Counted from the stretch's first letter, positions 13,637-33,922 are shown. The stretch is 64,000 bases of DNA from an uncultured Lentisphaeria bacterium (GCA_905197955.1 CAJKAR010000021.1:7763-71762); one strand, 5' to 3'. The notes: generated by a model from the letters alone, not told the origin. Numbers and translations: made by a program.

Positions 13637-13703
13637 CTTCAGGCCTCCTGTTTGAAGAATCCTCAATACTTTATCATGAAACATTCCATAGAACAAGAAA
13701 ATC

Positions 13704-13731: not shown

Positions 13732-13826
13732 GCCTCTCTCTTGCGAAAGAAAGGAAAACAGGTTACATTCCATAATAAAACAATCCGGCGCGTCAAGGCG
13801 TCAAACCACAAAAAAAGGATGGCAAA

Positions 13827-14657: not shown

Positions 14658-14732
14658 ATCTTCCGGATTCTCCGGCAGACTGGCAGAAAAAAAATCTCTC
14701 CGCCTGCCGGGGTCTTTTCTTGATCGTGATAT

Positions 14733-14756
14733 CTTAATCTATAACTTAATCTATAA
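14733..14756. repeat. Perfect tandem 12-mer x2 (CTTAATCTATAA)
   Basis: 14733-14744 equals 14745-14756. A partial third unit overlaps the AraC stop codon (14759-14761). Confidence 0.95.
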
Positions 14757-14758
14757 AC

Positions 14759-15628: not shown

Positions 15629-15725
15629 AATTTGTGCTGTTTTTGATAGATTTTTCTTCTGTTCATTTTTCTTTTTTCCCTTATAATATACAAGATACTC
15701 GAAATTTTTACAAAGGAGATACATC

Positions 15726-17789: not shown

Positions 17790-18979
17790 ATCAGCTGAAA
17801 CTTGCATTCGAATCCGGAAACGGGATTCTGCGTCTGGCACCGAACTGGGTACCGCGCTCCTTCTGCATTCCGGGACGGCGCATCAAACTGCATCCGGACG
17901 ACTACTACGCGCTTGGCGGCGAACGCGGCGGCATCGACGAACGGTGGTTCGCCTCCACAACTCCGGCGGACAACGGGCCGCTGACTCCGAAAGACGAAGG
18001 GGTCAGCCGGGTGGTCTGCGAAAACAACGAACTTGTCACTCTGCGCGATGCGGTCGAAGAGCTCGGCGCGGATCTGATCGGGGAACGGCTCTGGAACGAA
18101 TATCACGCATGGCCGATCTTTTCGAAATTCTTCGACAATCTCGGTCCGCTGCCGCACCACATCCATCACCGGGACCGGCACGCAAAGCTCGTCGGACAGC
18201 GCGGCAAACCGGAATGCTACTATTTTCCTCCTCAGCTCAATAATCACGGAGGACATTTCCCGTACACATTCTTCGGTCTGGAACCGGGAACAACGAAAGA
18301 TCAGGTCCGCGAGTGTCTGAAAAATTTCACAAAGGGCGACAACAAACTGACCAATCTTTCCCGCGCCTATCGGCTTGAGCCCGGAACCGGATGGGATGTC
18401 CCGCCCGGACTTCTCCATGCGCCGGGAAGCCTCTGCACCTACGAGCCGCAGGCGGCGTCGGATGTCTACGCCATGTACCAGTCGCTGGTGGACAACCAGA
18501 TCGTGCCGGAATCCCTGCTCTGGAAAGACTGTCCGAAAGACAAACTCGGCGATTATGACTATCTGCTCGACGTCATCGACTGGGAACTCAATGTCGATCC
18601 GGAATTGAAAGCGCATCGTTTCATGAGTCCGCGTCCGGTCCGTCCGGAAGCAGAAATGCTGGAAAACGGATACCGCGAACTCTGGGTCTGCTACAAGTCC
18701 GATGCCGTCAGCGCCAAGGAACTGACCGTTCTGCCGGGCCGGACCGCCATCATCCGGGACTCCGCCGCCTACGGTCTCATCATGATGCAGGGGCACGGCA
18801 CCATGAACAATCTGAAACTCGAAACACCCGCACTGATCCGCTTCGGACAGCTCACTTACGACGAATATTTCGTCTCCGAACAGGCCGCTCGGAAAGGCGT
18901 GAAAATCGTGAACGAATCTCTATCCGATCCGCTGGTCATGCTGAAACACTTCGGCCCGGCGAATCCCGATCTGAATTGA
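17786..18979 (+). CDS. Class I phosphomannose-isomerase-like cupin (sugar isomerase)
   Basis: 397 aa. The blocks ERWFAS, SKFFDNLGPLPHHIHH, PGLLHAPGS and YEPQAASD parallel the conserved metal-site blocks of type I PMI. ATGA overlap with the upstream gene. Confidence 0.45.
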   Translation: MNQLKLAFESGNGILRLAPNWVPRSFCIPGRRIKLHPDDYYALGGERGGIDERWFASTTPADNGPLTPKDEGVSRVVCENNELVTLRDAVEELGADLIGERLWNEYHAWPIFSKFFDNLGPLPHHIHHRDRHAKLVGQRGKPECYYFPPQLNNHGGHFPYTFFGLEPGTTKDQVRECLKNFTKGDNKLTNLSRAYRLEPGTGWDVPPGLLHAPGSLCTYEPQAASDVYAMYQSLVDNQIVPESLLWKDCPKDKLGDYDYLLDVIDWELNVDPELKAHRFMSPRPVRPEAEMLENGYRELWVCYKSDAVSAKELTVLPGRTAIIRDSAAYGLIMMQGHGTMNNLKLETPALIRFGQLTYDEYFVSEQAARKGVKIVNESLSDPLVMLKHFGPANPDLN

Positions 18980-18996
18980 AACTGCATTCCACGCGG

Positions 18997-19041
18997 GAAG
19001 CCTTCCGGATCTGCAAGGATCGGAAGGCTTCTCTCTTTTTT
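18997..19041 (+). terminator. Rho-independent terminator
   Basis: Stem GAAGCCTTCCG (18997-19007) / CGGAAGGCTTC (19021-19031), followed by TCTCTTTTTT. Confidence 0.85.
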
Positions 19042-19079
19042 CCCAGTTTCACGTCCAATTTCACTTATCATTTATCAAC

Positions 19080-19104
19080 AAAGTGAAAAGTTATGTGATA
19101 AGTA
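19080..19104 (+). promoter_or_regulatory. Operator-like motif copy 1 (AAAGTGAAAAGTTATGTGATAAGTA)
   Basis: 22 of 25 positions match the copy at 19215-19239. It contains the direct 11-nt units GTGAAAAGTTA and GTGATAAGTA. The inverted partner ACTTATCA is at 19063-19070. Confidence 0.4.
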
Positions 19105-19185
19105 TACACCCATGAAGCAATCGTCATTTCTTCTTGTTTTCAAGTATAAAAACAAACTTTTTTTCCATTTTTTCAAAAAGAACCA

Positions 19186-19213
19186 TTGACTTTTTTAAGA
19201 AATATCGTATAAT
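19186..19213 (+). promoter_or_regulatory. Near-consensus sigma70 promoter of cassette A (TTGACT-N16-TATAAT)
   Basis: TTGACT at 19186-19191 and TATAAT at 19208-19213, about 55 nt upstream of the regulator ATG. Confidence 0.55.
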
Positions 19214-19214
19214 A

Positions 19215-19239
19215 AAAGTGAAAAGTTAAGTGATACATA
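19215..19239 (+). promoter_or_regulatory. Operator-like motif copy 2 (AAAGTGAAAAGTTAAGTGATACATA)
   Basis: Starts 2 nt after the -10 box, so it would cover the predicted transcription start. It repeats the motif at 19080-19104. Confidence 0.4.
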
Positions 19240-19268
19240 AAACAGCAAAAAAAACTTAGGATTCGCGC

Positions 19269-20321
19269 ATGCCTCCGACTGAAAAAACAGATTTTATGAA
19301 AATACGGCAATATGTTATAAATACAATCGCCGTGAAAGGGGCGCAGCCGGTCCGCTTTCCGTCCAGCCGAAAGCTGGGAGAGATGTTCAAGGTCTCCCAG
19401 CCGACCGCCCTGCGCGCCATTCAGGATTTGATCGCGGATGGATATCTCGAACCATGTCGCGGCGGAGGAACGATATCGCGTCAGGTGGAACTGTCACAGG
19501 ATTTTTCCGGGACCAGAATCTTCGGATATATTTTCAATGACGGAAAAATCTCATTCTACGGTTTTTACGCCATGCACCTCCTCGCGGAAACAGCCCTTGA
19601 ACTGACCCGGAGGCACATTGGCTATCAGGTACAGGATATTCATGTGGAAACTCCGTCACTCCTGCGAAAAGAAGTGCGGAATGCCAACCTTTCGGGATTG
19701 ATTCTTCTGTCAGCCGATCCGCCAATCATGACTCAGGCGCTGAAATTAAAAAAGGAAGGATTCCCTGTTGTCTCGTTCACCCGCGATGCGGAAGGAATCA
19801 GTTCCGTTTACGATCCGCTGGAGGAACTGTACCGCGATATTCTCCTGAAACTTTTCGCGGAAGGGCGGACGCATATTCTGGTCTGTTCGCATCCGCTTGC
19901 CTATATGGTCTCCGCGACCAGAAAAGCCATCCGGACTGCGTGCGAAATGGCCGGAGTCTCCGAAAAGCAGGTAATTCTTCTCTGCGAAGGATTCACGAAA
20001 GATCAGGAAAAACTTCAGGAACTGCTGACATTTGGAGTTAAATTTGAAGGAGTCGTATTTCCCAATCCATTCCTCTGTTCCACAATCCGGGCAAAACTGG
20101 ACATCGAAAACGAATGCCGGATTGTCCTTGATGAAAGCAGAATGTATGACAATTTAAATTTTTCCGGCTATGTCGTCAAATACGATTATCCGCCTGCCGT
20201 CCGGATCATGATCGACAATCTGATTGCACAAACAGAAACACCGGAAAAAGCGCCTCTGCTCAAAGAAAAAATTCAATATCGTATTTTCCAGGTCCGCAAC
20301 GGAGTCATATTACCGGAATAA
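19269..20321 (+). CDS. AraR-like chimeric regulator (GntR-type wHTH + LacI/PBP1 sugar-binding domain), cassette A
   Basis: 350 aa. GntR HTH ([42 protein letters not shown]) followed by a periplasmic-binding-protein-like fold. Confidence 0.8.
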
Positions 20322-20353
20322 ATCTTGACCATTCAAGAAGGAGAAAAGATCTC

Positions 20354-21085
20354 ATGAACAGAAAATCAAGGAAAACGGAATCGCACTTCCAAAGAGTGAT
20401 CGGAAGTAAAAAAAGTTGTATCTATTTTATATTGATAGAGCTTTTAGTTGTAATTGCAATCATTGCAATTCTTGCATCGCTTCTTCTTCCGGCGCTGAGA
20501 AGCGCGAGAAACAAGGCAAAAGACATCAACTGTGCAGCCAACCTGAAACAGATCGGGACCTATATGACACTATATCTCAATGATTTTGAAGGATTTTTCC
20601 CGCCCCCCGCGCAGGAATCCCCGTTACCATCCGCATTCCGATCCACTGATGGCTGGGATGATATTCTGTACAGGCAGTATATCCAACCCGGCGTTATCAC
20701 TGGAGGATGTCAGTGGAACACCGTGACCAACGCGCCGCGTTACGGTCTTTTTCACTGCCCTTCGCAGGAGAAATGGGGTGAAACGAACCAATATGCCATC
20801 AATTGCATCCTGAATCAGACCTTTCTGAATCTGTCAAAAATCACCCGAGCATCCGCATTCATGATGTGCGTCGATCAGGATGCCTCCCGCGCCGACAACT
20901 GGGACGGCAACCGCTGGATCAACACTATCAACAATCCGGAACGAATTGATCCCAGACACAGCGGTATGTCCGCCAACCTGCTGTATGTCGATGGCCATAC
21001 CGCCAATTTGAAACATACGACAATTGATTACGAATCAAGCAGACGATGGAGTTCAAAACCATCCTTCTGGAATCCTCAAATCTAA
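20354..21085 (+). CDS. Prepilin-type N-terminal domain protein of the DUF1559 / H-X9-DG type, cassette A
   Basis: 243 aa. [24 protein letters not shown] starts at residue 25, followed by CAANLKQIG and a C-terminal [20 protein letters not shown] upstream. Confidence 0.85.
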
Positions 21086-21112
21086 AAAATCAATTCAGAG
21101 GAAACAACAACT

Positions 21113-24100
21113 ATGAAATGGCATCGGATTCTTCTTTCCCTTCTGATTCTTTCCACGGCAAGCCTGTCTATTGCGGAGGAGTGGAAACTCGAAACAAAAG
21201 GCTGGCGCTGGCAGGGTTCGGGAAAAGCATCCGTTACTCAAACCGACGGACAACTGAATCTCCGGCTGTACGGAAGTTACATCCTGACAAAATCCATCCC
21301 ACTGAAAGCGAAATGGAAAGGAATCCTCTTCACATTCCGAATGAAAACGGAAAAGGTCGTCAAAGGAAAACAGCACTGGGCGGACGCCCGTTTTCAGGTT
21401 CTCTTCTATGACCGGAATGGAAAACAGGTCGGCGGCTGGCCGCCCTTCGCCACGGCAACGGGAACAAGCGATCGCAGAAGAGAGATGTTTTATAAAATTC
21501 CATCTGGAGCTTCCGAGGTCCGGATCAGTCCTTCGAATCTGGGAGTCTCCGGGAAAGTCGAATTTCTCGATCTGCACGTCTATCCCATGACAACCGATAA
21601 AATCACGGATCTCGATGCGCGTCCGCCGGAAGGTTCCGCCGAGGATCATATGAGTCTGAAGGGAGCGGAAACGCTCAAAAACGGACAGAGAGAGCAGATC
21701 TGCCTGAACGGTCTCTGGCAATTCTATCCGCTGAAAAACGGAGTCGATCCGGCATTGCAACTTCCGGCAAAGGGAAGCGGATGGTGCTGGTTCAAAGTCC
21801 CCGGAGCGTGGCCGTCGTGGGGAAATCAGACGGCGGAATCCGCTCAGGCGATCATCGTATCGCCCTTTGCAACGGAAAAAATCGACACGCTCAAACTCAA
21901 CGAGGCATGGTACCGCAGAATCTTCACCGTGCCCGCGGAATGGAAAGGCAGACGGATCCTCCTGAACTTCACCATGCTCCAGACCAACGCACAGGTTCTC
22001 GTGGACGGCAAACGTGCCGGCGAAGTCTATTTTCCCGGCGGAGAACTTGATCTGACCGGAAAACTCCTTCCGGGAAAACAGCAGGAACTGGCAATTCTGG
22101 TCACTGCCAATCCCGGCAAAAGCAACGTGCATTTCATGGCGCCGGATGTCATCATCAATACGCCGGCAAAGCTCGGATTCCGAGGCATCACAGGCGATCT
22201 GTATCTCAGTGCAATTCCCTCTGCGGGGAATATTCGCGACGTGCGGATCACAACCTCCGTTCGCCGGCAAACCATCTCCTGCGACACCGCTCTGGAACAT
22301 CTCCCGCCCGGAGAATATCTCCTGAAAGCGGAAATCTTCGACGGCTCCGCCAAAGTCCGGGAGTTCCGTTCCGAGCCGTTCCGCATTGTCAAGGAATCAC
22401 CGCTCCTCCGCAAAAACTTTTCCGCAACCTGGAGAAATCCGAAACTCTGGGATACGAATCATCCGGAAAATCTCTACCGGGCAACGATCACCCTGCTGAA
22501 AAAGGACGGATCCGTCATCGACACCCTTTTCCCGGAGGAATTCGGATTCCGGGAATTCTGGACCAGCGGCAGAAACTTCTATCTGAATGAAAGCGTGATC
22601 CATCTGCGCCAGTTTGCCCACGGACTGAACTGCGGAGCGGCAAACATCTCCTGCCGGGAAAATGTGGTAAACGTGCTGAAACGAGTCAAAGAAGCGAATT
22701 TCAATTCGGTTTTCGGTGTGGACTACGCTTTCCGTCCGGGACAGGTCGGCTACATTGACCACTCCTATCGGGAAAGCTCAAAACTGGGACTTCTCACCGC
22801 CCTGACTCTGCCTCACGCCGCCCAGTACAACTGGAATCTGGATGATCCGAAGGAAAACGCCCGTTACCGCAGGCACGCGGAACATCTCATCCGCCGCTTT
22901 CAGAATCTTCCCGGCATCGTGATGTACGCCATGACCCACAATGCCACGGGAGACATCGCGGATCAGAATCCCCTGAAAATGGGAATGCCGAACACCTTTC
23001 CTGCAAACAACAAGACCATGCAGGCTCTGAAAGCCGAAGCCATCGTCCGGGAACTGGATCCCGACAAAGTGATCTATCATCACGCGGGCAGTCCCGGCAA
23101 CGGAATCTTCGGTGTGAACTGCTATCTGAACTGGGCGCCCGTTCAGGAACGCAGCGACTGGTTCGAACACTGGGAAAAACACGGCACGCGCCCGCTGATG
23201 CTGAGCGAATGGGGACTGCCGCACCGCGCAAGCTACTCCAGTTTCCGCGGAGGAGCGGGCATCTGGTTCCGGAAAAATCCGCAGTGCTTCTGGGTCGAGG
23301 AATACAACGCCGAACATCTCGGGGAAGAGGCGTACCGTCTGACGCAGGATCATCTGGATTTTCTCGAAATGCAGACGAAAAACACAGGAAACAAACCGAT
23401 CTATTTCTCTCTGGACGGAGACAAACTGCTGCGGACCTGTCAGACGGTTCTGAAGGAATTCGTCGGCGAAAATTTCCCGGCGTTCCGAATCCGCGGACTC
23501 TCCTCCATCGCGCCGTGGGACAGCTCGTGGTTCTGGGATAAACTGGAGCCGCAATGGATCTCCGTCGACAATCCGGATGCGTTCCGGAATCTGAAAAGAC
23601 CCGGCATCTCGCCGGACCGCTTCCACACGCCCGGAACCCGATTCGCATGGAATGAAACAGACGGAACAGGATCATGGAAACTCACAAAACTCGGCGAAAC
23701 CGTAGCGGCGGCCTTTGCGGACCGTCTCGCCATGATCGCCGGAAAGACGGGAGACTTCTCCGAAAAAGGACATAATTTCCGTCCGGGCGAAACCGTCAGC
23801 AAACAACTCATTGTCGTCAACGACTCACGGGAAACTCTCCGTGTTCTCTGCAAAGCCTCCGTTCCCGAACTGAATCTGAATCTGGAAAAAGAACTCACGA
23901 TCCCAACCGGAAGCCGCGCATCCATGCCGGTTCAGTTCCGGATTCCGGAGAAATTCACAGGAAAAACAATCTGCCTGAACGCGGAATTTCTCTTCCCGGA
24001 TCAGACTCGATCCACAGACTCCATCCGGCTTGATGTGATCCGGCCGATCGCGAAAAAAACGATCCGCGGACTCGGACTCTACGATCCCGAGGGAACCGCC

Positions 24101-25792
24101 GCTCCGCTTCTGAAGGAACTCGGACTCTCCTTCCGGAACATCCGGACGCAAAACGATCTTGCCGGAATCGAACTCCTTGTCATCGGAAGAAAGGGAATGA
24201 AGGAGTTCCCGTTCAAACTGGCGGAAAAGATCGAAAACGGACTCAAACTTCTCGTTCTGGAACAGGAATATGAGGATCTGCTGAGAATGGGGCTGCGTGG
24301 AAACATACAGGGATTGCGCAAAGTGTTTCCGCTGTCGCCGGAATTCGAACATCTCCACTGGTGGCGCGGCTCCTCGACTCTGACAACGCCGTTCCTTGAG
24401 CTGCCCGAACACGAAAGCGGATATCCCTCGTGGAAATTCAACGACATGTACAGCAGTCGAGTCTGGCGAGCCGGCAACCGCGGCAATGTATGCAGTGTCC
24501 TCATCGAAAAAGCTCCGGCGGGAAATTTCCTCCCGCTGATGCAGGGCGGATTCGATCTCCAATACGCTCCGCTTCTGGAGATGAAGAGCGGAAAAGGTAC
24601 CGTTCTCTTCTCCCAGCTGGATCTTTCCGGAAGGACGGAATCCGATCCCGAGGCCCTCACGATCCTCCGGAAACTCCTGGATCGTCTGGAACAGGCGAAA
24701 CCGCATGCGGCAAGACCGGTCGTCTACCGGGGCGGAGCGGAGGGAAAAGCGCTCCTGAAAAAACTGAATATCGCCTTTTCTGAAACGGAACAGCTCCCCT
24801 CCAACGCTCTGCTGACGGCGGGCCCCGGCGCAAAACTCGCGGATCTGAAGGGACGGATCGAAAACGGACTCGATGTCCTTGTCATCGCTCCGGAAAAATC
24901 GGAACTGGAACGAATCCTTCCAGCGGGAACCGTGCTTCAGTCGGGCAGATTCTTTCCCGCTTATGTCTCCGGACTCAAAAAGCATCCGGAATTCGCGGGG
25001 ATCTCGAATGCGGATCTGCACTGGAGAAAGCCGATTACCCTCTCATTCGATCCCTCAGGCGACGGCGGACGCGCACTGCGGATTTTCCGGATCGGGAAAG
25101 GACGCCTGATCGTCAGCCTCATTGCGCCGTGGATGTTCGAGGAACAGGAATTTCAATACAGGACCTCGTTCCGCCGGAGTGCGTTTCTGCTCTCCCGTCT
25201 GTTCCGGAATCTCGGGGCGGCGGACGCCTCCGGAAGCGCGATCATGTTCGACAGGGATTATCTGGCGGCTCGCGGAATCGAACTGAAAAACGGCTGGAAA
25301 GGAATCGCCGATCCGCAGAAGACCGGTCGCAAAAACGGATTCTGGAAACCGGAGTTCAAACCGGGAAGCAACTGGCGCACAGTCAAAGTCAACAGAGCCT
25401 TCGAGTCGCAGTTCCGGGATCTGCGAAATTACGATGGATTCTTCTGGTACCGTCTCAACTTTGATCTGAAAGGGGAAATCCGGCCGGATGCGGAGTATCT
25501 CCTCAACATTCCGGCAGTCGACGACGAATCCTGGTGCTGGCTCAACGGCCGCTTCATCGGAGAGCTCTCCGCCCGAACCAATCCGAACGACTACTGGTAT
25601 GCAAAACGAATGCACCGGTTCAAAGGAAATCTACTGAAAAAACGGAACAATACTCTGGTCATTCTCTGCAACGATCTCCGAAACACCGGAGGAATCTGGG
25701 GAATTCCAGCAATCAAAGCCGCAGACGGTCTCAGGCTCTATGCGGACACCCCCGTTGCAGATGACAATCCGTATCGTTACAGCCGCTGGTAA
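21113..25792 (+). CDS. Secreted multi-domain GH2-like glycoside hydrolase (1559 aa)
   Basis: Signal peptide MKWHRILLSLLILSTASLSIA. GH2-type sugar-binding jelly roll (WYRRIFTVPAEWKGRRILLNFTMLQTNAQVLVDGKRAGE). Barrel entry FGFREFW...FYLNESVIHLRQFAH. Also GATase1-like inserts and a second galactose-binding-like domain at the C-terminus (FFWYRLNFDL...WCWLNGRFIGE). Confidence 0.7.
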   Translation: MKWHRILLSLLILSTASLSIAEEWKLETKGWRWQGSGKASVTQTDGQLNLRLYGSYILTKSIPLKAKWKGILFTFRMKTEKVVKGKQHWADARFQVLFYDRNGKQVGGWPPFATATGTSDRRREMFYKIPSGASEVRISPSNLGVSGKVEFLDLHVYPMTTDKITDLDARPPEGSAEDHMSLKGAETLKNGQREQICLNGLWQFYPLKNGVDPALQLPAKGSGWCWFKVPGAWPSWGNQTAESAQAIIVSPFATEKIDTLKLNEAWYRRIFTVPAEWKGRRILLNFTMLQTNAQVLVDGKRAGEVYFPGGELDLTGKLLPGKQQELAILVTANPGKSNVHFMAPDVIINTPAKLGFRGITGDLYLSAIPSAGNIRDVRITTSVRRQTISCDTALEHLPPGEYLLKAEIFDGSAKVREFRSEPFRIVKESPLLRKNFSATWRNPKLWDTNHPENLYRATITLLKKDGSVIDTLFPEEFGFREFWTSGRNFYLNESVIHLRQFAHGLNCGAANISCRENVVNVLKRVKEANFNSVFGVDYAFRPGQVGYIDHSYRESSKLGLLTALTLPHAAQYNWNLDDPKENARYRRHAEHLIRRFQNLPGIVMYAMTHNATGDIADQNPLKMGMPNTFPANNKTMQALKAEAIVRELDPDKVIYHHAGSPGNGIFGVNCYLNWAPVQERSDWFEHWEKHGTRPLMLSEWGLPHRASYSSFRGGAGIWFRKNPQCFWVEEYNAEHLGEEAYRLTQDHLDFLEMQTKNTGNKPIYFSLDGDKLLRTCQTVLKEFVGENFPAFRIRGLSSIAPWDSSWFWDKLEPQWISVDNPDAFRNLKRPGISPDRFHTPGTRFAWNETDGTGSWKLTKLGETVAAAFADRLAMIAGKTGDFSEKGHNFRPGETVSKQLIVVNDSRETLRVLCKASVPELNLNLEKELTIPTGSRASMPVQFRIPEKFTGKTICLNAEFLFPDQTRSTDSIRLDVIRPIAKKTIRGLGLYDPEGTAAPLLKELGLSFRNIRTQNDLAGIELLVIGRKGMKEFPFKLAEKIENGLKLLVLEQEYEDLLRMGLRGNIQGLRKVFPLSPEFEHLHWWRGSSTLTTPFLELPEHESGYPSWKFNDMYSSRVWRAGNRGNVCSVLIEKAPAGNFLPLMQGGFDLQYAPLLEMKSGKGTVLFSQLDLSGRTESDPEALTILRKLLDRLEQAKPHAARPVVYRGGAEGKALLKKLNIAFSETEQLPSNALLTAGPGAKLADLKGRIENGLDVLVIAPEKSELERILPAGTVLQSGRFFPAYVSGLKKHPEFAGISNADLHWRKPITLSFDPSGDGGRALRIFRIGKGRLIVSLIAPWMFEEQEFQYRTSFRRSAFLLSRLFRNLGAADASGSAIMFDRDYLAARGIELKNGWKGIADPQKTGRKNGFWKPEFKPGSNWRTVKVNRAFESQFRDLRNYDGFFWYRLNFDLKGEIRPDAEYLLNIPAVDDESWCWLNGRFIGELSARTNPNDYWYAKRMHRFKGNLLKKRNNTLVILCNDLRNTGGIWGIPAIKAADGLRLYADTPVADDNPYRYSRW

Positions 25793-25804
25793 ATAGAGGA
25801 GGTT

Positions 25805-25838
25805 TTCCGGAGAAAATCCCCCCGTTCCTTCTCCGGAA
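25805..25838 (+). terminator. 10-bp hairpin after the giant GH gene (no U-tract)
   Basis: TTCCGGAGAA (25805-25814) / TTCTCCGGAA (25829-25838). No T-run follows, so it may be an attenuator or RNA-stability element rather than a full terminator. Confidence 0.35.
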
Positions 25839-25942
25839 ATACCCGTGGAACCGAAATAATGATTCCTCCCCGGGATTTGCATTTTCATCTTCCGGATGAT
25901 ATGGTATCTCCATTTTCAAACATAAGAAAAGGAGAAGTCTCT

Positions 25943-26218
25943 ATGAGCCGTATCTACGCGACCTCGAACGACAAGGTCTGTTCCCGGATCGGACACTGCA
26001 TGCGCCTGTTTCTGCTTCCTGCGATGCTTCTTCTGCTCGCGGCAACCGCCGTCGGATGCGCGGATCACCCCCACCATCATGCGCCGCCCCCGAGGCCGGA
26101 AATGCGTCCGCATCGGCCCGCGCCTCCGCCGAGACATGCGAACAGATCCCATCAGCCCGCACCTCTACCGGGACAGGAAAGCCGTCCGCAACAATCACCG
26201 CCGCCCCCGCCGCGCTGA
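25943..26218 (+). CDS. Possible small lipoprotein with His/Pro/Arg-rich tail
   Basis: ATG at 25943 with GGAG 8 nt upstream. Internal MRLFLLPAMLLLLAATAVGC is lipobox-like. The mature part is ADHPHHHAPPPRPEMRPHRPAPPPRH.... The GC-rich stretch is open in several frames, so coding status is uncertain. Confidence 0.35.
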   Translation: MSRIYATSNDKVCSRIGHCMRLFLLPAMLLLLAATAVGCADHPHHHAPPPRPEMRPHRPAPPPRHANRSHQPAPLPGQESRPQQSPPPPPR

Positions 26219-26240
26219 CTCCATCCGAACGGCATCCACA

Positions 26241-26276
26241 GCGGAAACGGAATTTATTTTTCCCGTTTCCGCTTGT
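26241..26276 (+). terminator. Terminator-like hairpin
   Basis: GCGGAAACGG (26241-26250) / CCGTTTCCGC (26263-26272), followed by TTGT. The U-tract is weak. Confidence 0.45.
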
Positions 26277-26360
26277 ATCTGAATTTCCTCTGTGATACAG
26301 CAGAGATTCCCCACGCAAAAAAGTTTCTCACAAACAAGCAATTTTCAAGGAATACTGGCC

Positions 26361-28202
26361 ATGAAACAGACAGTCTGGCTGATGCTGGCAGATCGGAACG
26401 CGCCCGACCTTTTCTTCGCGGTAAGTTCGGTCTGCAATCTTGCCCGGAACAGCGGCGTGCTGTTCAGCTCTTACTTTGAAACAAGACGGAACGGACAACT
26501 CTTCGCGGAAAGCGGTTCCACGATTCCCGGCGGACACCATTTTCAGGATTTCAATTATCTGTGCGCCGTTGCCGATGTCAAAGTGATCCGATATGGAAAC
26601 GCATATGTATTTGACTCCTCCATCCGGAATTTCGGACTGGAAGTCATCGCGGAGGCGGAACGACCTGCGGAACTGTACCGTCAGCTGCTTGATTACACGG
26701 GCGGCACTTTCCAGCCGGAAACGCTCTATTTCGGATTGAACCATCCGATCCGGAACGGAAACGGACAGGAAATCCGTCCGGAACCTTATCAGTATCCGGA
26801 AATCCTGAACACCGCCGCTCTCGCATTCTCCCCTTCCGACGGAGAAGCGGCAAAAGAATTTTACGCCGAAGGAATGGCGGTCCGCTCCTGTTTCTGTTCG
26901 CCGGAGGAGAACGACTCCTTGCAGAAACTCTATCCGCAGCTGGAGATCATCGACCGGATCCAGCCGGATGATGACTGGAGATCCATCACGCTCCGCATCG
27001 CGGAACGGTGGAAACACAAGGCGAAAAGCGTCTTTTTCGGCGATCCCGATGCGCTCTTCTGCCGGATTCCCGAGGAAGCCCGCAGAGAAAGCGTCGCTCT
27101 CTACGCTCCGGCAGTTCATCCGGCCCCGAAAGAGATCAAGGTCAGTTCCTATATCGAAGGGCACTCCGCGGCAGCGGAGGATACGGCTCGTCTGGCACGG
27201 GAGATTGGGAACCCCGTTCTCTGCGGCCGTCAGACTCTGGATGGAGATATTCTTCTCTGGTCGCGGAGCGGACTCTGTATTCAGATCGTGGATCCGAACC
27301 GGCCCGCATTTCCGGTCATCGACGAGTTCCCGCAGGTCTGGACCAGGACAAAAGACGAAGACCGGGATTTCTTCGAGGACTCCATCTCCGACGCCACCTT
27401 GCGCCAGTGGGCCCATGAGGGAAAACGTCTGACCACCCTCCTCTGGCACTCCGGAGAAATCGCCCACAATGAAGCCATGATCAATCTTCTGGAATGTGCC
27501 GCAATCAACAAAGTGAAAATGGGAATCGGCGTTCATGCGCAGCGTTATGAAACCTGTCCGCAGCTCTGGGAGCTGATCCGCATTCCGGAACGGCTCGGCG
27601 GTTCTATGGAGTTCATCGAACCGCTTCTCTACTCGGGAGGACTCGGCATCGCGGCGGAAATCAATCTGCCTCCGGAATCCCTCGGCGGACTGATCCGGGA
27701 AGCAAAAGAGCGGATCAGACGGATCGCGGGCGACGACGCCGTCCCGCGCGGTCACTACTGTTTCCTCGATTCCGATACCGAAACCCATCTGAAATACCGC
27801 TCCGAAATCTGGGACGCCATCGCCGAGGCGGGAATGCGGTACAACATCTCGGCCTGTTCGCCGGGACGAAACAGAATTCTGGCGGAAAAAAATGGATGTC
27901 TCGTCCTGAACCAGTCCTGCCGGGTGCTGGAAAGCTCCTCCCCGTTCGTGCGGATTACCACGGCGGAAGATGTCCGCCAGCGGAGCTGCCCGATCTATCC
28001 GGGCTGGATGATTGCCACTCTGGATGCACCGGTCATAGCCTTCAATCCCTACATCTGGCGACAGGGACACCGGTTCATGGAAATGCTCAACGCCATCAAA
28101 ACCGGGGGCAATCAGATCAATGTCAAGCCCTCGACGATCGCCCGCTACGCCCGGATTCTGGAGGAGGAAGGTTTTCTCCCTCCCGCCGGACCGCTGATTT
28201 GA
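26361..28202 (+). CDS. Hypothetical protein, 613 aa, leaderless, no family recognised
   Basis: I prefer the + strand ORF over the overlapping 671-aa minus-strand ORF. It has balanced amino-acid composition, an AAGGAA RBS 8 nt before the ATG at 26361, and a 16-nt gap to the next + gene. Confidence 0.7.
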   Translation: MKQTVWLMLADRNAPDLFFAVSSVCNLARNSGVLFSSYFETRRNGQLFAESGSTIPGGHHFQDFNYLCAVADVKVIRYGNAYVFDSSIRNFGLEVIAEAERPAELYRQLLDYTGGTFQPETLYFGLNHPIRNGNGQEIRPEPYQYPEILNTAALAFSPSDGEAAKEFYAEGMAVRSCFCSPEENDSLQKLYPQLEIIDRIQPDDDWRSITLRIAERWKHKAKSVFFGDPDALFCRIPEEARRESVALYAPAVHPAPKEIKVSSYIEGHSAAAEDTARLAREIGNPVLCGRQTLDGDILLWSRSGLCIQIVDPNRPAFPVIDEFPQVWTRTKDEDRDFFEDSISDATLRQWAHEGKRLTTLLWHSGEIAHNEAMINLLECAAINKVKMGIGVHAQRYETCPQLWELIRIPERLGGSMEFIEPLLYSGGLGIAAEINLPPESLGGLIREAKERIRRIAGDDAVPRGHYCFLDSDTETHLKYRSEIWDAIAEAGMRYNISACSPGRNRILAEKNGCLVLNQSCRVLESSSPFVRITTAEDVRQRSCPIYPGWMIATLDAPVIAFNPYIWRQGHRFMEMLNAIKTGGNQINVKPSTIARYARILEEEGFLPPAGPLI

Positions 28203-28218
28203 TCCCGGGAGAAGAAAG

Positions 28219-29628
28219 ATGAAGACCATACAGGAAACACTGGAAACGGAAATCTCGGCGGAAACGGATGTGCTTATCTGCGGAGGAGGCCCCGCCGGAT
28301 GCGCGGCGGCAATCGCAGCGGCAAGAAACGGATGCAGCGTCATTCTGACGGAATATCAGAGCTTCCTCGGCGGAGTTCCGGCGGCTGCCGGAGTCAACGG
28401 AATCGGAACCTTCTACTGGGATCTCGACGGGCGCGTCCTGATCTCCGGAATTCCGCAGGAACTCGTCAGCCGGATCTATCTGGCAAGCGACGGAAACAAA
28501 GAGTTCCTGAAAACCATCTTCACCCCCCGCGAAGGCGCGCCGGATTACAAGGAGACATTCGGAGGATTCTTCCTGAACAGCAATCCGGAAATGGTGAAAA
28601 TCATTCTGGATGAGATGATGCGGGAAGCGGGAGTCCGTGTTCTGCTGGAAACACAGGCGGTCCGGCCGCTCATGGACGGCAAAAAAGTGATCGGTGCCGT
28701 TACGGAATCGAAGTCCGGGCGAAGGGCGATCCTCGCACGAACCGTCATCGACTGCACCGGCGACGGAGATATCGCCGCCCGCGCAGGCGCCGAATTCGAA
28801 ACAGGACGCCCCGAAGACCATCTCTGCCAGCCGATGAGCCAGATCTTCGTCACCAGCGGCACAAATTATCCGGACCTCTATTACGGCACCGGTGAGGACC
28901 CCGATCCCAATCCCCTCACCCGCTTCCGTTTCCGCGGAGCCGTGAAGGACGCACGGGAAAAAGGCATCCTCAAGGAGAATCCCAACGACATCCTCTGCGC
29001 CGCCACCCCGCTCTCGCGAAACGATCCAACCGTGCGGGCGGTCAACTTCACCCGAATCCAGAAGTATTCCGCTCTCGACACGGATCAGAAAAGCGCCGCC
29101 CTCGCCGCCGGACGGAGACAGGTTCTGGAAGCCATGCGCTTTATCCACTCCTATGTTCCCGGCGGAAGCAATGCCAAACTGGCGCAGATCTATACCACGA
29201 TCGGCGTCCGGGAGAGCCGCCGGATCACCGGGGAGTACCGGCTGACCGCCGATGATGTCATGCAGGGACGCAGATTCCCCGATTCCATCGCCCGCGGTCT
29301 CTATCTGCTGGATATCCACAATCCGGACAAAGTGGGAGTCCCTTCCACGCTGATCCGTCTGAAACAGCCTTACGACATTCCGTTCCGGATTCTGGTACCG
29401 CGCGGACTCGAAGGAATTCTCGTGGCGGGACGCTGCGTGTCGACGGATCACATCGCGCTCTCAAGCTGCCGGATCATGTCCCACTGCATGGCGATGGGCG
29501 AAGCCGCCGGAACCGCCGCGGCTCTGGCAAAGCAGACCGGAACCGCCGCCGGACTCGTCGATCCGGAAGCCCTGCAATCGCTCCTTTCCGCCAACGGAGC
29601 CAATCCCCGCGGCCCGGCGGAAGGATAA
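28219..29628 (+). CDS. FAD-dependent oxidoreductase (FAD_oxidored-type, GlcD/thi4-like Rossmann N-terminus)
   Basis: 469 aa. DVLICGGGPAGCAAAIAAARNG dinucleotide-binding motif, DCTGDGDIA block, and C-terminal CRIMSHCMAMGEAAGTAAA. Confidence 0.8.
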   Translation: MKTIQETLETEISAETDVLICGGGPAGCAAAIAAARNGCSVILTEYQSFLGGVPAAAGVNGIGTFYWDLDGRVLISGIPQELVSRIYLASDGNKEFLKTIFTPREGAPDYKETFGGFFLNSNPEMVKIILDEMMREAGVRVLLETQAVRPLMDGKKVIGAVTESKSGRRAILARTVIDCTGDGDIAARAGAEFETGRPEDHLCQPMSQIFVTSGTNYPDLYYGTGEDPDPNPLTRFRFRGAVKDAREKGILKENPNDILCAATPLSRNDPTVRAVNFTRIQKYSALDTDQKSAALAAGRRQVLEAMRFIHSYVPGGSNAKLAQIYTTIGVRESRRITGEYRLTADDVMQGRRFPDSIARGLYLLDIHNPDKVGVPSTLIRLKQPYDIPFRILVPRGLEGILVAGRCVSTDHIALSSCRIMSHCMAMGEAAGTAAALAKQTGTAAGLVDPEALQSLLSANGANPRGPAEG

Positions 29629-29657
29629 GGCATCCAGCCAGAAACAGACACCAATCC

Positions 29658-29707
29658 GATTCCCCGGCAGATGGATTTCAAAAACATCCGCCGGGGAATC
29701 TTTTTTT
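29658..29707 (+). terminator. Rho-independent terminator
   Basis: Stem GATTCCCCGGC (29658-29668) / GCCGGGGAATC (29690-29700), followed by T7. Confidence 0.85.
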
Positions 29708-29773
29708 CAGAACAAATCTTCCTTTCTCTCTTCCATTTCCAGAAAAATTTCTTAAAAAAAGAGAAAAAAGCTC

Positions 29774-29802
29774 TTGCTTCGTCAGGATACCTAACATATA
29801 AT
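29774..29802 (+). promoter_or_regulatory. sigma70 promoter of cassette B (TTGCTT-N17-TATAAT)
   Basis: TTGCTT at 29774-29779 and TATAAT at 29797-29802, 36 nt upstream of the regulator ATG. Confidence 0.5.
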
Positions 29803-29837
29803 AAAAATAGACCAAAGAAAAAAAAGTCGGAGTTGCA

Positions 29838-30896
29838 ATGCAGAAAAAAGCCCCAAAACGTGATCAGCTTTATGAATCGCTGAAAGCCGCAATTACCGGA
29901 GGAATCTATGCCCCGGGAAGTCAACTGCCGAAAGAGGTGGAATTTGCGGAAGAACTCGGGGTCTCCCGCAAGACGCTCCGTCACGCACTGGAACGACTCG
30001 AAAACGATCATCTGATCGAACGGCTCAGAAGCAAGGGAACCTTTGTGCGATTCCGCCGTTATCTTGTGCTTGCGGATAACAATGAGGATCTCTGCATGCC
30101 GTACAACTATATTATTCCGGGCATCATCCGGACTGCGGAACGAATGGGGTGCGCGGTTTCCATCTGCGCGTTTTCCGAACTGGAAAATCTGACGGAGGAA
30201 CAGGTTTCTGCCAGCATCAAAGCCCAGCAGAACGCAGGCTGCATTGTCATTACCAACAAGATTGATGAGAATACACGCATCTATCAGCAGTTGAAGCATC
30301 TGCCGCTGCCGGTGGTGCTGGCGCACGGACATCCGTCGGATCACGTTTTCACGGGCTGGCCGACCGTCGCATACGAGGAACGGACGGCGTGGCGCGCTGC
30401 GTTTGAATATCTGAAAGAACTGGGACATCGAAGAATCGCCGCCGGCTGCCATCGTTCGGATTTAAAAGAGATCCGCGGCTGGAAACAGGAGAAGTTCCTT
30501 GCTATGCTCGAAGAACTCGGACTCGATGCGGATCCGAAGCTGCTGTTTTCCCTGAACGTTCGAGGAGGAAACGCAGATCAGGCGATGCATCGTCTCTTCC
30601 GGGAACAGAAACCGCCGACCGCGGTCGTCTGTTACAGTGATTTCTGGGCACCGCATATCTACCGCAGTCTGGAAAAGTTGAATCTGCGGATTCCGGAGGA
30701 TGTTTCCATCATGGGGTTCTGCGGAGCCCCCATGGGACGCTATCTTTCCCCGACCCTCTCAACCATTGATTTCCAATATGAAAAAACCGGAGAGATGGCT
30801 CTGCGGATGCTTCTGGAACATATGCATCCGCCTCTGGAAATCGTCGATTTCAAACTGGATCCCCGAAATAGCACCGCAAAACTCAATCCATCATAA
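29838..30896 (+). CDS. AraR-like chimeric regulator (GntR-type wHTH + LacI/PBP1 domain), cassette B
   Basis: 352 aa. HTH QLPKEVEFAEELGVSRKTLRHALERLENDHLIERLRSKGTFV, followed by a LacI-type effector domain (VVCYSDFWAPHIYRSLEKLNLRIPEDVSIMGF). Confidence 0.85.
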   Translation: MQKKAPKRDQLYESLKAAITGGIYAPGSQLPKEVEFAEELGVSRKTLRHALERLENDHLIERLRSKGTFVRFRRYLVLADNNEDLCMPYNYIIPGIIRTAERMGCAVSICAFSELENLTEEQVSASIKAQQNAGCIVITNKIDENTRIYQQLKHLPLPVVLAHGHPSDHVFTGWPTVAYEERTAWRAAFEYLKELGHRRIAAGCHRSDLKEIRGWKQEKFLAMLEELGLDADPKLLFSLNVRGGNADQAMHRLFREQKPPTAVVCYSDFWAPHIYRSLEKLNLRIPEDVSIMGFCGAPMGRYLSPTLSTIDFQYEKTGEMALRMLLEHMHPPLEIVDFKLDPRNSTAKLNPS

Positions 30897-30923
30897 AAAA
30901 CTCATCCAGGAAAGGATTTTACC

Positions 30924-31700
30924 ATGAAAACAATACCAAGGAAAAAAGAGATTGACTCAAGTACGGTTCCCCGTAAATGGAAAACGAGTTCCGTTTTCAC
31001 ATTGATAGAACTCCTGGTCGTAATCTCCATCATAGCGATTCTGGCATCGATGCTTCTTCCTGCGCTCAACAAGGCGAGAATCAAGGCGAGATCCGCAAAC
31101 TGCGCCGGAAATTTGAAGAATGTCGGACTTGCTCTTCTGACCTACAGCGGCGATTTCAACGAGTACATGGTACTGCCCTGTCAGGCGGATATTTCAGGAC
31201 AGGGCAGCTACGATACCGACCGCTGGCACATGGTTCTGTGGAACTGCGGATATCTGAAAATGAACAAAGTGCTTTACTGTCCGGAAGCGGCAAGCAGAGG
31301 AAATGTGAACTACGGGAGCAGTCACACCCTACCATGGTGGAAAACGGGAAATGTCTACGGCGTCAACCGGGCAACGTTCGTCTACAACTGGAGCATCACC
31401 CGCAGAATCAAACTGACGGAAATTAAACGTCCCTCCAGCCGGATCTATGCGGCGGATACCATCAACGGCGTGGAAGGGACCAACTATATGAAACACGCTC
31501 TTGATGTTGCCAAAACAAGCAGTACCAACGGAGTCTTTTACCCCTATCATGAATTGGACTGCAACATGGTCTGGGTTGATGGCCATGTCGCTGCCAAAAG
31601 GGCCGCGACTCCTACACGCACAGGTGTATGGGATGTGCTTCCCATAAATCCCAAATATCCCACCGGATGGGGAAAAACTCTCTATCTCTACAACGACTAA
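30924..31700 (+). CDS. Prepilin-type N-terminal domain protein of the DUF1559 / H-X9-DG type, cassette B
   Basis: 258 aa. [24 protein letters not shown] starts at residue 25, followed by CAGNLKNVG and a C-terminal [13 protein letters not shown], which is an exact H-X9-DG. Confidence 0.88.
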
Positions 31701-31720
31701 ACACAGGATCCAAACTCATT

Positions 31721-33862
31721 ATGATGTACAGAACTCTCCTGCACTCGCTTCTTCTCCTTTCTGCCCTCCCCCTCCTCTCCGGTGCGGAAAAAAGCTCAAA
31801 GCTTCTTTTCGACTTTTCCGGAATGCAGACCGGAATCCGGAAAATGGGAACCAGCAATTATGAAATCAGAAACGGAACACTGAACCTTCATGTTCCGGCA
31901 GACAGCCCGAAATGGTCCGGAATTCTCGTAAAAGATCCCTCCGGCAAGGGCTTCTCCACCAAAGGCTATTCCGCGATTGCTTTTGATGTACGCAATCGGA
32001 CAAACGGTTTTTCCGGAGAACTTCAGGTGGAACTGATCTGTCTGGAATCCAACAAAAAATGGCGTTATCGCAGCAAAGGCGGAGTCGCTCTGCGGCAGAA
32101 CGAAACGTTTACCTGCCGGGTACCTTTTTACCGGGATCACGGTGGAAAGCTCAAGGATCCGATGCTGAGCACCGGAATCTACGTCTCTCCGGACGGATAT
32201 CCGGGAAAAGACGGAAGTCAGCGCAGTCATCTGGATCGCATCGACGAGATCAGGATCTTTGTGAATTCGGTCGGCTGGCGCGGAAAGGAACATCGGTTTG
32301 AACTGTCGAACATCCGTCTGGAAAATCCGGTTGCACCGCTGAAACAGGAACTTTCCGATCCGTCGAAATTTTTCCCATGCATCGACCAGTTCGGTCAGTA
32401 CAGACATGCGGAACATCGCAATCCGATCCGTTCCGACCGCGAACTGCGCGAACAGGCTCAAAAGGAACTGGAAGAGCTGAAACGCACAAAACCAAATCCG
32501 GAATGGACACGTTACGGCGGATGGAAAAATGGTCCATCCTTCCCGGCAACAGGACATTTCTATCCTCGCAAACATCAGGGGAAATGGTATCTGGTCGATC
32601 CGGAAGGAAAACTCTTCTGGGGACACGGAATTCAGGGGATCCGCTGGTCGGATACCACTCCCGTCACCCGCCGCGAACACTGGTTCGAAAAACTCCCGCC
32701 TGAAAACGATCCCCTCTATGCCCCCTGCTGGCTCACGGAATACAGCGGTGCCGCCTGGTACGAAAAAACAAAAGGCAAACTGACATCCTTCAACTTCAAT
32801 CTGCGCAATCTCATTGCAAAATACGGCAGCGAATATCCAAAAGGATTCATCCGGACCACCGCCATGCGTCTGCCCGCATGGGGCTTCAATCTGATCGGGG
32901 TCAACAGTTATCTGCCGCTGACCAGAGAGGCAAAAATTCCGTATATTCACAATCTCGGCGGCCGCCGTCCGAAACTCAATGGGGGCAAAGGGGTCTTCTT
33001 CGATGTCTTCGATCCGCAGTATCCGCAGAAACTGAAAGAGGAATTCACCGGACGATACCGCTTCACGCTCAACGATCCTTACTGCATCGGCTACTGCATC
33101 GACAATGAAGTGAAATGGGGAAGCGCGAACCGCTTTGCCGCGGATGTCGTCCGCTCACCTGCCTCGCAACATTCCAAAAAGAGCTTTCTGGAATCTCTCA
33201 AAAAGAACTACCGCAATGACCTGAACGCCTTCAACCGGGCGTGGAAACGTAATTTCAAAACCTGGGATGCCTTTCTGACAGCAACGGATCTGCCAGAGAC
33301 AAAACAGGGACTGAACGATCTTACCGCGTTCAATGACGAGATCATCCGTACCTATTTCAAAATCAACCGGGAGGTTCTGAAACAATGCGCACCGCACAAA
33401 CTGTATCTTGGTTCCAGAATGCATGATTATCCGGTCCGGGTCATAGGGATTGCCGCGCCGTATCTGGATGTCATTTCGCTGAATCTGTACCGTCACTCGG
33501 TTGCGGATCTTTCACTGCCGAAAACGCTGGACAAACCCGTCATCGTCACGGAGTACCATTTCGGACTGATGGATGGAGGAATCCCCGCGGGCGGAATTCA
33601 GACCTGTGCATCCAGAGCCGACCGCAAACACGCCTATTCACGCTATGTGGAAAGCGCGCTTTCGAATCCGCAGGTGATTGGGGTCACTTACTTCCAGTGG
33701 AGAAATCAAAGTCCGGTCGGACGCTATCAGGATGGAGAAAACTTCTACTGCGGATTCGTCGATGTCACCGACCGGGGCGAAAAGGAACTGGTCGAAGCGT
33801 CAACGGAGCTCGGAAAACAACTCTATCGCTACCGTCTCCACGGCATTCCCTCCGTTCCATAA
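31721..33862 (+). CDS. Secreted clan GH-A glycoside hydrolase, GH50 (beta-agarase family)-like
   Basis: Signal peptide MMYRTLLHSLLLLSALPLLSGA. N-terminal CBM-like beta-sandwich. The barrel has IDNE (putative acid/base) and PVIVTEYHFG (putative nucleophile), resembling GH50/GH42 blocks. Family call made by eye. Confidence 0.5.
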   Translation: MMYRTLLHSLLLLSALPLLSGAEKSSKLLFDFSGMQTGIRKMGTSNYEIRNGTLNLHVPADSPKWSGILVKDPSGKGFSTKGYSAIAFDVRNRTNGFSGELQVELICLESNKKWRYRSKGGVALRQNETFTCRVPFYRDHGGKLKDPMLSTGIYVSPDGYPGKDGSQRSHLDRIDEIRIFVNSVGWRGKEHRFELSNIRLENPVAPLKQELSDPSKFFPCIDQFGQYRHAEHRNPIRSDRELREQAQKELEELKRTKPNPEWTRYGGWKNGPSFPATGHFYPRKHQGKWYLVDPEGKLFWGHGIQGIRWSDTTPVTRREHWFEKLPPENDPLYAPCWLTEYSGAAWYEKTKGKLTSFNFNLRNLIAKYGSEYPKGFIRTTAMRLPAWGFNLIGVNSYLPLTREAKIPYIHNLGGRRPKLNGGKGVFFDVFDPQYPQKLKEEFTGRYRFTLNDPYCIGYCIDNEVKWGSANRFAADVVRSPASQHSKKSFLESLKKNYRNDLNAFNRAWKRNFKTWDAFLTATDLPETKQGLNDLTAFNDEIIRTYFKINREVLKQCAPHKLYLGSRMHDYPVRVIGIAAPYLDVISLNLYRHSVADLSLPKTLDKPVIVTEYHFGLMDGGIPAGGIQTCASRADRKHAYSRYVESALSNPQVIGVTYFQWRNQSPVGRYQDGENFYCGFVDVTDRGEKELVEASTELGKQLYRYRLHGIPSVP

Positions 33863-33872
33863 ACACAAAAAC

Positions 33873-33907
33873 GGCGGAATTCCGGAACCGATTCCCGGCA
33901 TTCCGCC
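33873..33907. terminator. Hairpin between convergent genes
   Basis: GGCGGAAT (33873-33880) / ATTCCGCC (33900-33907), with an inner CCGG/CCGG stem. No clear U-tract on either strand. Confidence 0.4.
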
Positions 33908-33922
33908 TCCATTCATTCACAC

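Follow-up and report, generated by a model that had tools for sequence, protein, structure and literature searches.

A stretch of 64,000 nucleotides (nt) from an uncultured Lentisphaeria bacterium (GCA_905197955.1, CAJKAR010000021.1:7763-71762), referred to here as the window, contains two units of the same gene order. In each of them a sugar-binding transcriptional regulator (R1 and R2) is followed by a pilin-like protein (P1 and P2; P for the family in general) and by a secreted enzyme, related to glycoside hydrolase (GH) family GH2 in unit 1 and to family GH50 in unit 2. The trio is a conserved and lineage-specific module, in which the pilin-like gene is statistically associated with a regulator ahead of it and a signal-peptide protein behind it. 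On sequence grounds, P may be a subunit of the type IV filament class (the type II secretion class) dedicated to the neighbouring enzyme and serving its export or surface display. This is the explanation that is tentatively favoured here, with somewhat less than even confidence.

Conservation of the gene order

The sample comprised 80 loci from the GTDB species collection, fetched by family alignment and containing 119 pilin-like genes. Genes were called with a codon-score model and cross-checked against independently annotated contigs, and the controls were gene pairs or random genes drawn from the same loci. A signal-peptide protein of at least 450 amino acids (aa) was identified directly downstream of P and on the same strand in 37 of 113 cases, as against 29 of 509 control pairs (Fisher p 1e-13). 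Among the upstream genes on the same strand, Peripla_BP_3 was identified in 19 of 60 and GntR in 17 of 60, the controls giving 4/130 and 3/130 respectively (p about 1e-7). The association proposed in the initial annotation was in this way set against the possibility of a random or non-conserved gene order, and it survived: orthologous trios recur and both sides of P are enriched.

In the Lentisphaerota loci a signal-peptide protein is located within 150 nt downstream of 50 of the 82 P genes, and a regulator precedes P in 19 of 79. Neither link was found in the Verrucomicrobiota loci sampled, with a signal-peptide protein downstream in 3 of 25 and a regulator upstream in 0 of 25. The system had been presented as typical of the PVC group (Planctomycetota, Verrucomicrobiota and Chlamydiota), which is therefore too broad a name for a link that appears in the Lentisphaerota loci.

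Full trios amount to 15, coming from at least 11 assemblies, and the median gap between P and the enzyme gene is about 18-19 nt. The downstream partners are diverse and comprise, by Pfam, Laminin_G_3/ConA-like proteins, GH42, CBM9, GH123, DUF6259, DUF4838, PL8, heparinase, sulfatase and rhamnosidase; some, for example Peptidase_S9, are not glycan-active. Trios were also identified in independently annotated complete genomes, with the compositions LacI/PBP-P-DUF4838/CBM9, PBP-P-GH2 and GntR/PBP-P-GH5. Proteins of 150-400 aa are sometimes located between P and the large enzyme, and they are unrelated to P and to one another.

The R2-P2-GH50 trio is present in three further metagenomic loci with a protein identity of 76-85% (69% over a 62-residue fragment of R2 in locus L088). 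The P2 orthologs are 77-79% identical and evolve at a rate like that of the flanking genes, with no excess in the head between species. Contigs of the same species as the window retain the whole stretch PurL-AraC-GH16-AraC-GHL6-u397-R1-P1-GH2-...-FAD-dependent oxidoreductase-R2, where u397 is an open reading frame (ORF) described below. Named relatives of its UvrC assign the window to Lentisphaerota.

Pilin-like proteins and their exported partners

The two proteins had been described as prepilin-like with an H-X9-DG motif, which holds in part. The N-terminal motif F-(T/I)-L-I-E-L-L-V-V was identified in both (FILIELLVV in P1) and H-X9-DG in P2, as H209...D219-G220-H221. In P1 the spacing differs, with ten residues between H and DG, and neither protein gave an NCBIfam match to TIGR04294 (H-X9-DG) at E up to 0.01. 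P1 and P2 are 32% identical. An alignment of 32 members contains an almost invariant helix, with invariant Phe at +1 (F25) and Glu at +5 (E29), followed by a head that is variable except for a conserved Cys pair and His...Asp-Gly-His near the C-terminus.

The homologs of P2 form more than 7555 clusters at 90% identity, mostly from Victivallales. They are named in their sources as prepilin-type, H-X9-DG, DUF1559, type II secretion and in some cases 'GspH family', and many of them match PF07596. DUF1559 (PF07596, SBP_bac_10), or H-X9-DG proteins of Planctomycetota and Lentisphaerota, is the label that Pfam and JGI give to P homologs. The likeness lies in the large paralogous family and in the His...Asp-Gly-His of the C-terminal region. 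Unlike DUF1559 proper, P1 and P2 match only the first 30-50 or so of its 268 positions, P2 with 27.0 bits (above the cut-off of 23.3; model positions 2-33) and P1 with a sub-threshold 21.8 bits, and both lack the TIGR04294 match. P2 gave 19.5 bits with PF07963 (N_methyl), below its cut-off of 21.2, and was above the cut-off of TIGR02532. The GspG model TIGR01710 (134 residues) gave 29.0 and 30.6 bits as against a cut-off of 88.85, over positions 3-59 only, and by this comparison the P proteins are not GspG members. A reading as solute-binding proteins, taken from the Pfam identifier SBP_bac_10, was rejected, as it had no structural or sequence support (Foldseek, PDB).

Compared with solved structures, the family profile matches pilins (PilA) and GspG over the N-terminal helix only. 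A search with the head alone recovered 932 clusters at 50% identity, all of about 220-300 aa and all with the head after a short N-terminal segment. AlphaFold2 modelled full-length P2 with a pLDDT (predicted local distance difference test) of 82 and the head alone with a pLDDT of 86 and a pTM (predicted template modelling score) of 0.85. In some loci, such as L048 (389 to ~8000), L066 and L029, up to six pilin-like genes stand in tandem in place of one per enzyme; the family may be used differently there, or the arrays may supply alleles. The window contains two pilin-like genes only.

Classical prepilin peptidases require Gly, rarely Ala, at position -1. This residue is Tyr in P1 (20423-20425) and Val in P2 (30993-30995), and Gly was identified in 0 of the 32 aligned homologs. 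Among the Lentisphaerota copies the position is occupied by Arg, Ser, Lys, Ile, Asn and others, and the leaders are as short as Met-Lys-Lys. As a class III signal peptide, the N-terminus of P lacks the Gly at -1 and has the other sequence features, which are Phe at +1, Glu at +5 and the hydrophobic segment. The Lentisphaerota proteins would depend either on a peptidase of altered specificity or on a different maturation. The split between lineages in Gly/Ala at -1 (counts below) coincides with that between presence and absence of the link to enzymes.

The head of P1 is replaced between strains. In contigs L083-L086 the flanks are 97-100% identical to the window, and the part coding for the head (20542-21138) has a nucleotide identity of 63-85%, being the only diverged segment between these near-identical strains; one strain has two P genes at this spot. 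Synonymous divergence (dS) is 0.68 in the head and 0.05-0.07 in the flanks, and the ratio of nonsynonymous to synonymous divergence (dN/dS) is 0.28. Positive selection through point mutations was considered and rejected, given this ratio and a dS about tenfold above the flanks; the two values together point to the replacement of divergent alleles by recombination. The replacement looks like a recombination of alleles or cassettes anchored on the invariant sequence that codes for the helix.

Both unit enzymes carry the signal peptide claimed for them, of the classical type, MKWHRILLSLLILSTASLSIA in the GH2-like enzyme and MMYRTLLHSLLLLSALPLLSG in the GH50-like one. The 1559-aa enzyme matches Pfam Glyco_hydro_2, Glyco_hydro_2_N and Glyco_hydro_2_C, all above cut-off and all weakly (E 1e-8 to 1e-4), and has weak matches to GH2 entries of the PDB (best E 2.6e-9). 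The sugar-binding, immunoglobulin-like and TIM-barrel domains of GH2 are all present, and about 800 C-terminal residues are without domain assignment. The 713-aa enzyme has no Pfam match. It aligns with the GH50 exo-beta-agarase Aga50D (PDB 4bq2) with E 4.3e-64 over residues 213-317 and 355-706, and the DNE and (T/G)E(Y/F)H stretches, which we take to hold the catalytic Glu residues of GH50, are aligned and conserved. On these features of family membership the protein is classed as GH50 beta-agarase-like. Six other proteins of the window are similar to carbohydrate-active enzymes or putatively glycan-active, namely GH16, GHL6, GH38-like, BNR, DUF2961 and u397 (the last without family match); they lack both a P gene and a signal peptide.

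Layout and expression signals of the two units

The features identified are listed in Table 1. Both units were located where the initial annotation had placed them, with a regulator that combines a GntR helix-turn-helix (HTH) and a sugar-binding domain, a pilin-like protein and a signal-peptide enzyme, and the coordinates and sizes of the ORFs agree with the ORF listing and with the codon-score gene caller. The length of the GH50-like enzyme is counted from the second Met of ORF 31628-33862. The intergenic gaps, claimed to be of 20-32 nt, measure 32, 27, 27 and 20 nt, and Shine-Dalgarno-like AAGGAG, GAGGA or AGGA sequences were identified in the gaps of both units. The order of regulator, pilin-like protein and enzyme is the same in both units as claimed; unit 1 is not tricistronic, containing three further ORFs before the terminator at 29658.

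Table 1. Features of the two units and of the adjoining DNA, numbered from the first nucleotide of the window
Feature	Position	Strand	Description
Intrinsic terminator of the preceding GHL6-u397 unit	18997-19041	+	-27.7 kcal/mol, z -4.0, then T-rich tract (TCTCTCTTTTTT)
Operator-like box 1	19083-19100	+	GTGAAAAGTTATGTGATA; kept in strains L083 and L085
Unit 1 promoter, sigma-70 type	19186-19213	+	TTGACT-N16-TATAAT; 11/12 in consensus scan
Operator-like box 2	19218-19235	+	GTGAAAAGTTAAGTGATA; begins 5 nt past the unit 1 -10 hexamer
R1	19269-20321	+	350 aa; divergent regulator with GntR-HTH and LacI/PBP1-type sugar-binding domains
P1	20354-21085	+	243 aa; pilin-like (type IV filament class), variable head
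GH2-like enzyme	21113-25792	+	1559 aa; multidomain, secreted
Small lipoprotein ORF	25943-26218	+	proline-rich; lipobox LLAATAVGC (translation)
ORF without signal peptide	26292-28202	+	613-636 aa; coding score favours the + strand over an overlapping - strand ORF
FAD-dependent oxidoreductase	28219-29628	+	PF12831, Pfam E 1.9e-109; cytoplasmic
Intrinsic terminator closing unit 1	29658-29707	+	-28.2 kcal/mol, z -5.9, then seven T
Unit 2 promoter	29774-29802	+	TTGCTT-N17-TATAAT; read off the sequence, plausible
15-bp GT...AC near-palindrome	29781-29795		GTCAGGATACCTAAC; in the spacer of the unit 2 promoter; candidate R2 operator
R2	29838-30896	+	352 aa; AraR-type, GntR-HTH and Peripla_BP_3/BP_1
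P2	30924-31700	+	258 aa; pilin-like, FTLIELLVV and H-X9-DG
GH50 beta-agarase-like enzyme	31721-33862	+	713 aa; secreted
Hairpin between convergent GH50 and GDSL genes	33873-33907		-24.2 kcal/mol, z -5.5; T-run on the minus-strand side

The two terminators proposed for the ends of the preceding units are real by folding energy and z-score, each being a strong hairpin with a T tract, and neither was listed by a simple consensus scan. Of the two promoters proposed, that of unit 1 is near consensus, and that of unit 2 has a perfect -10 and a -35 with 3 of 6 matches, which is why the consensus scan did not list it. Region 29772-29813, which contains the unit 2 promoter, is identical at 41 of 42 positions in the species-level relative L087 with the flanking intergenic DNA diverged, and it reads as a clear phylogenetic footprint. 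A scan of 18000-35000 against Rfam identified no riboswitch or other RNA family.

Both regulators had been called AraR-like. In R2 this is borne out by Pfam, with GntR at 5.7e-19 and Peripla_BP_3 at 1.5e-25, the full two-domain architecture of the AraR type. R1 is very divergent, its Pfam GntR match being below the cut-off (22.2 bits vs 27), and it joins the type by profile comparison alone: hhalign against a profile of R2-like regulators gave a probability of 98.5% and E 1.9e-15 over 256 columns. The AraR type of Bacillus subtilis combines a GntR HTH with a LacI/GalR-type effector domain. This architecture is common to R2 and R1, and they differ from the Bacillus case in having no similarity to one another detectable by BLASTP.

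Operator-like sequences were identified at both promoters. Upstream of R1 the 18-nt box GTGAAAAGTTAWGTGATA occurs twice, 135 nt apart, with 0.06 chance matches expected in the window, and the two boxes are candidate R1 operators; the position of the second, just past the -10 hexamer, suggests repression by R1. The GT...AC near-palindrome of unit 2 is fully conserved in L087 and has a single copy in the window. Its form and position suggest an R2 operator. With a regulator as the first gene, these sequences fit an autorepression that would be relieved by sugar.

Between the GH2-like enzyme and the terminator of unit 1 are located the three further ORFs. The lipoprotein ORF is conserved, annotated as a 91-aa gene in L085 and preceded by AAGGAG; its tail is very rich in proline and histidine. 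Beyond it, at about 26240-26274, is a hairpin of moderate strength (-20.4 kcal/mol, z -2.4). The second ORF has an ortholog that is 99% identical and annotated as a 613-aa gene in L085, and gave no sequence match in Pfam, NCBIfam or the PDB. The FAD-dependent oxidoreductase has a GxGxxG dinucleotide fold at its N-terminus and no signal peptide. Downstream of unit 2, the hairpin at 33873-33907 is probably a shared terminator of the GH50 and GDSL genes.

The region 12758-18979, upstream of unit 1, comprises two units controlled by AraC regulators and without P, AraC-GH16 and AraC-GHL6-u397, whose enzymes are without signal peptides. The u397 ORF (17786-18979, 397 aa) is a conserved member of a glycan-utilisation operon, with no match in Pfam or NCBIfam. 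Farther upstream, the long plus-strand ORFs 4215-6470, 8029-9468 and 9659-13720 are shadows by coding score and Pfam. The real genes are on the minus strand: a PBP2 transpeptidase (4266-6236), DUF2961 (8407-9483), a PurL-type FGAM synthase (9695-12661) and an AraC regulator (12758-13711).

Proposed role of the pilin-like proteins

Each unit would be a sugar-responsive and probably autorepressed operon of a Lentisphaerota (Victivallales-like) bacterium, whose AraR-type first-gene regulator would probably be bound to an operator that overlaps the promoter and be released by a breakdown sugar. P would belong, as an orphan subunit with a variable head of about 200 residues, to the type IV filament class, which includes the type II secretion pseudopilins. 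Since the helix hardly varies among thousands of paralogs, all copies should fit one shared machine encoded elsewhere. The Sec-exported enzyme would be encoded third, starting about 20 nt past the P gene, and P, as the partner dedicated to its locus, would aid the exit of the enzyme from the periplasm or its display at the surface by joining an apparatus of the type II secretion or type IV pilus-like kind that all copies share. We infer co-transcription, repression, filament assembly and contact between head and enzyme. This explanation is supported by the one-to-one, translationally tight pairing of P with exported proteins of many unrelated families. Also in its favour are the conservation and enrichment of the module, the operator-like sequences at both promoters, the invariant helix, the presence of P beside the exported and not the cytoplasmic glycan-active proteins of the window, and the pseudopilin of an alginate-induced operon described below.

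The following results weigh against it. Gly or Ala at -1 was identified in 6 of 82 Lentisphaerota copies, as against 26 of 26 in Verrucomicrobiota (p 1e-19), and its loss makes processing and assembly into a filament uncertain. Genes for a secretin, an ATPase, a platform protein or a prepilin peptidase were absent from the 64 kb of the window and from the surroundings of the P genes, so that the shared machine is assumed. Foldseek searches of the PDB with the AlphaFold2 models of full-length protein and head gave nothing at E < 1. The P1 head differs by 20-50% between strains whose GH2 enzymes are 97-98% identical, and a head that changes with an unchanged enzyme is not what a tight lock-and-key fit between them would lead one to expect. 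A test of co-variation between head and enzyme comprised only 6 module pairs with homologous enzymes, and its signal came from one orthologous pair. Finally, about 40% of the Lentisphaerota P genes have no signal-peptide protein downstream.

An unlikely alternative is that P is a glycan-capture pilin, with a lectin-like head specific for the polysaccharide of the neighbouring enzyme and carried by a retractile type IV-like fibre. The fibre would bind the glycan at the cell surface and deliver it to the enzyme or to the periplasm, as proposed for the MUL2 pilus of Akkermansiaceae, where a type IV-like pilus has been tied to the uptake of mucin and fucoidan (PMC13174399, PMC12418764). The apparent co-regulation of P with a sugar sensor and a glycan-active enzyme is consistent with it, as are the variable head on an invariant assembly helix and the divergent P1 head alleles of near-identical strains, which are expected of a surface-exposed part. 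The head, however, has no similarity to a carbohydrate-binding fold or family (Pfam, Foldseek), neither unit contains an uptake component, and partners such as Peptidase_S9 are not glycan-active. The one-to-one pairing, with a gap of ~18 nt before an exported protein, is more like a partnership between proteins.

In Lentisphaerota, 76 of the 82 copies have neither Gly nor Ala at -1 and leaders can be reduced to MKK. Together with the position of P next to an exported protein, this would also suit an unprocessed P, retained as a single-pass anchor in the inner membrane, whose periplasmic head folds, holds or pilots the enzyme encoded beside it. It would resemble the specific membrane-associated chaperones that the type II secretion substrates of Acinetobacter are reported to need (PMC4713064). 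Such an anchor or chaperone is improbable nonetheless, as the strict conservation of Phe1, Glu5 and the helix points to packing of the filament type, and a specific foldase would not be expected to exchange its head alleles between strains when the enzyme stays the same. Least probability of all is given to the absence of a dedicated link, where P would be a duplicated general envelope family heading operons for exported proteins, through shared expression timing or duplication of whole cassettes, with no role specific to the neighbouring enzyme. The P copies without exported neighbour, the tandem arrays such as that of L048, the variation of the P1 head and not of the enzyme, and the co-variation test that yielded nothing from its few pairs all agree with this. 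Against it stand the very strong enrichment on both sides of P, in at least 11 assemblies and with many unrelated enzyme families, and the retention of the trio across species.

Beyond dedicated export or display, P may be proposed as a modular address label, one orphan pilin-like gene being assigned to each exported enzyme. Its invariant helix would fit one shared machine, its non-canonical cleavage site would imply a re-tooled peptidase or a new maturation, and its fast-swapping head would either dock the co-translated enzyme, for secretion or display, or capture the glycan of that enzyme. This wider proposal is possible, on the doubtful side.

Known systems and significance

Type II secretion pseudopilins (GspG/PulG, GspH) and type IV pilins share with P the short basic leader, Phe1, Glu5 and the hydrophobic alpha-1 helix. 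Unlike GspG/PulG and type IV pilins, P is encoded outside gsp and pil operons, as thousands of orphan paralogs with one copy per enzyme operon. Unlike pilins and pseudopilins, it has a head of ~200 aa without sequence or Foldseek match and, in Lentisphaerota, has lost the Gly at -1.

A family of 68 DUF1559 paralogs has been described in P. limnophila (PMC10632474). The literature mentioning DUF1559 reports no function for it and no link to an enzyme or a regulator, as far as the search extended (subscription journals outside it). With the same coverage, no earlier description of the regulator-pilin-enzyme trio was found. The initial annotation held that no such locus had been characterised, which stands for the trio itself in that literature and has to be tempered by two known cases. 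In Verruconatronum alginivorum (Opitutales) a pulG-like pseudopilin with 67 paralogs is part of an alginate-induced lyase operon; it was substrate-induced in proteomes, as was a second pseudopilin, and the authors suggest export by type II secretion (PMC13274419, 2026). This operon is similar in having a multi-copy pseudopilin amid signal-peptide polysaccharide lyases, so that the idea of a pseudopilin paralog inside a glycan-degradation operon had already been glimpsed. It differs in belonging to another phylum and in being one gene of a 15-gene cluster with no recurring trio, and the report offers no statistics, mechanism or homology test against P1 or P2. The second case is the pilus locus of Akkermansiaceae (PMC13174399). 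As described, MUL2 (Amuc_1099-1102) is likewise a pilin-like filament for glycan acquisition in a PVC bacterium, but it is one conserved locus that includes PilM and a secretin, neither a paralog for each enzyme nor linked to a regulator.

In the substrate-specific polysaccharide utilization loci (PULs) of Bacteroidota, too, a sensor or regulator is encoded together with enzymes that act on glycans. Pfam and NCBIfam searches of the ORFs between 19269 and 33862 identified neither a TonB-dependent transporter nor a SusD-like protein, nor a transporter of any other kind, and for this reason the units are not PULs of the Bacteroidota type. The analogy of P to SusC/D drawn initially is unsupported, as the units contain no transporter or outer-membrane component and the head of P has no relative among solved structures. 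As far as found, four elements are new: a regulator-pilin-enzyme order that recurs, the figures behind it together with its confinement to Lentisphaerota, the missing Gly at -1, and heads that are exchanged between strains.

Few paralogous families of PVC bacteria are as large as that of the DUF1559/H-X9-DG pilin-like proteins. Gene order and its statistics now connect the Lentisphaerota branch of this family with regulators that sense sugars and with exported enzymes that degrade glycans, and an orphan family gains its first testable job, a hypothesis open to deletion and localisation. That the Gly at -1 has been lost across the family calls the accepted rule of prepilin processing into question, and the strain-level replacement of the P1 head hints at surface exposure and at selection by phages or hosts. 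Should these proteins act as enzyme-specific adaptors in secretion or display, or as pilins that capture glycans, a whole phylum of gut and marine polysaccharide degraders would owe to them its way of deploying enzymes without SusC/D, and P, if this is true, would offer natural helix-plus-head modules for secretion engineering. If P is an address label, the logic equivalent to that of a PUL would be built on pili instead of TonB-dependent transporters, which would explain the largest unexplained paralog expansion of the phylum.

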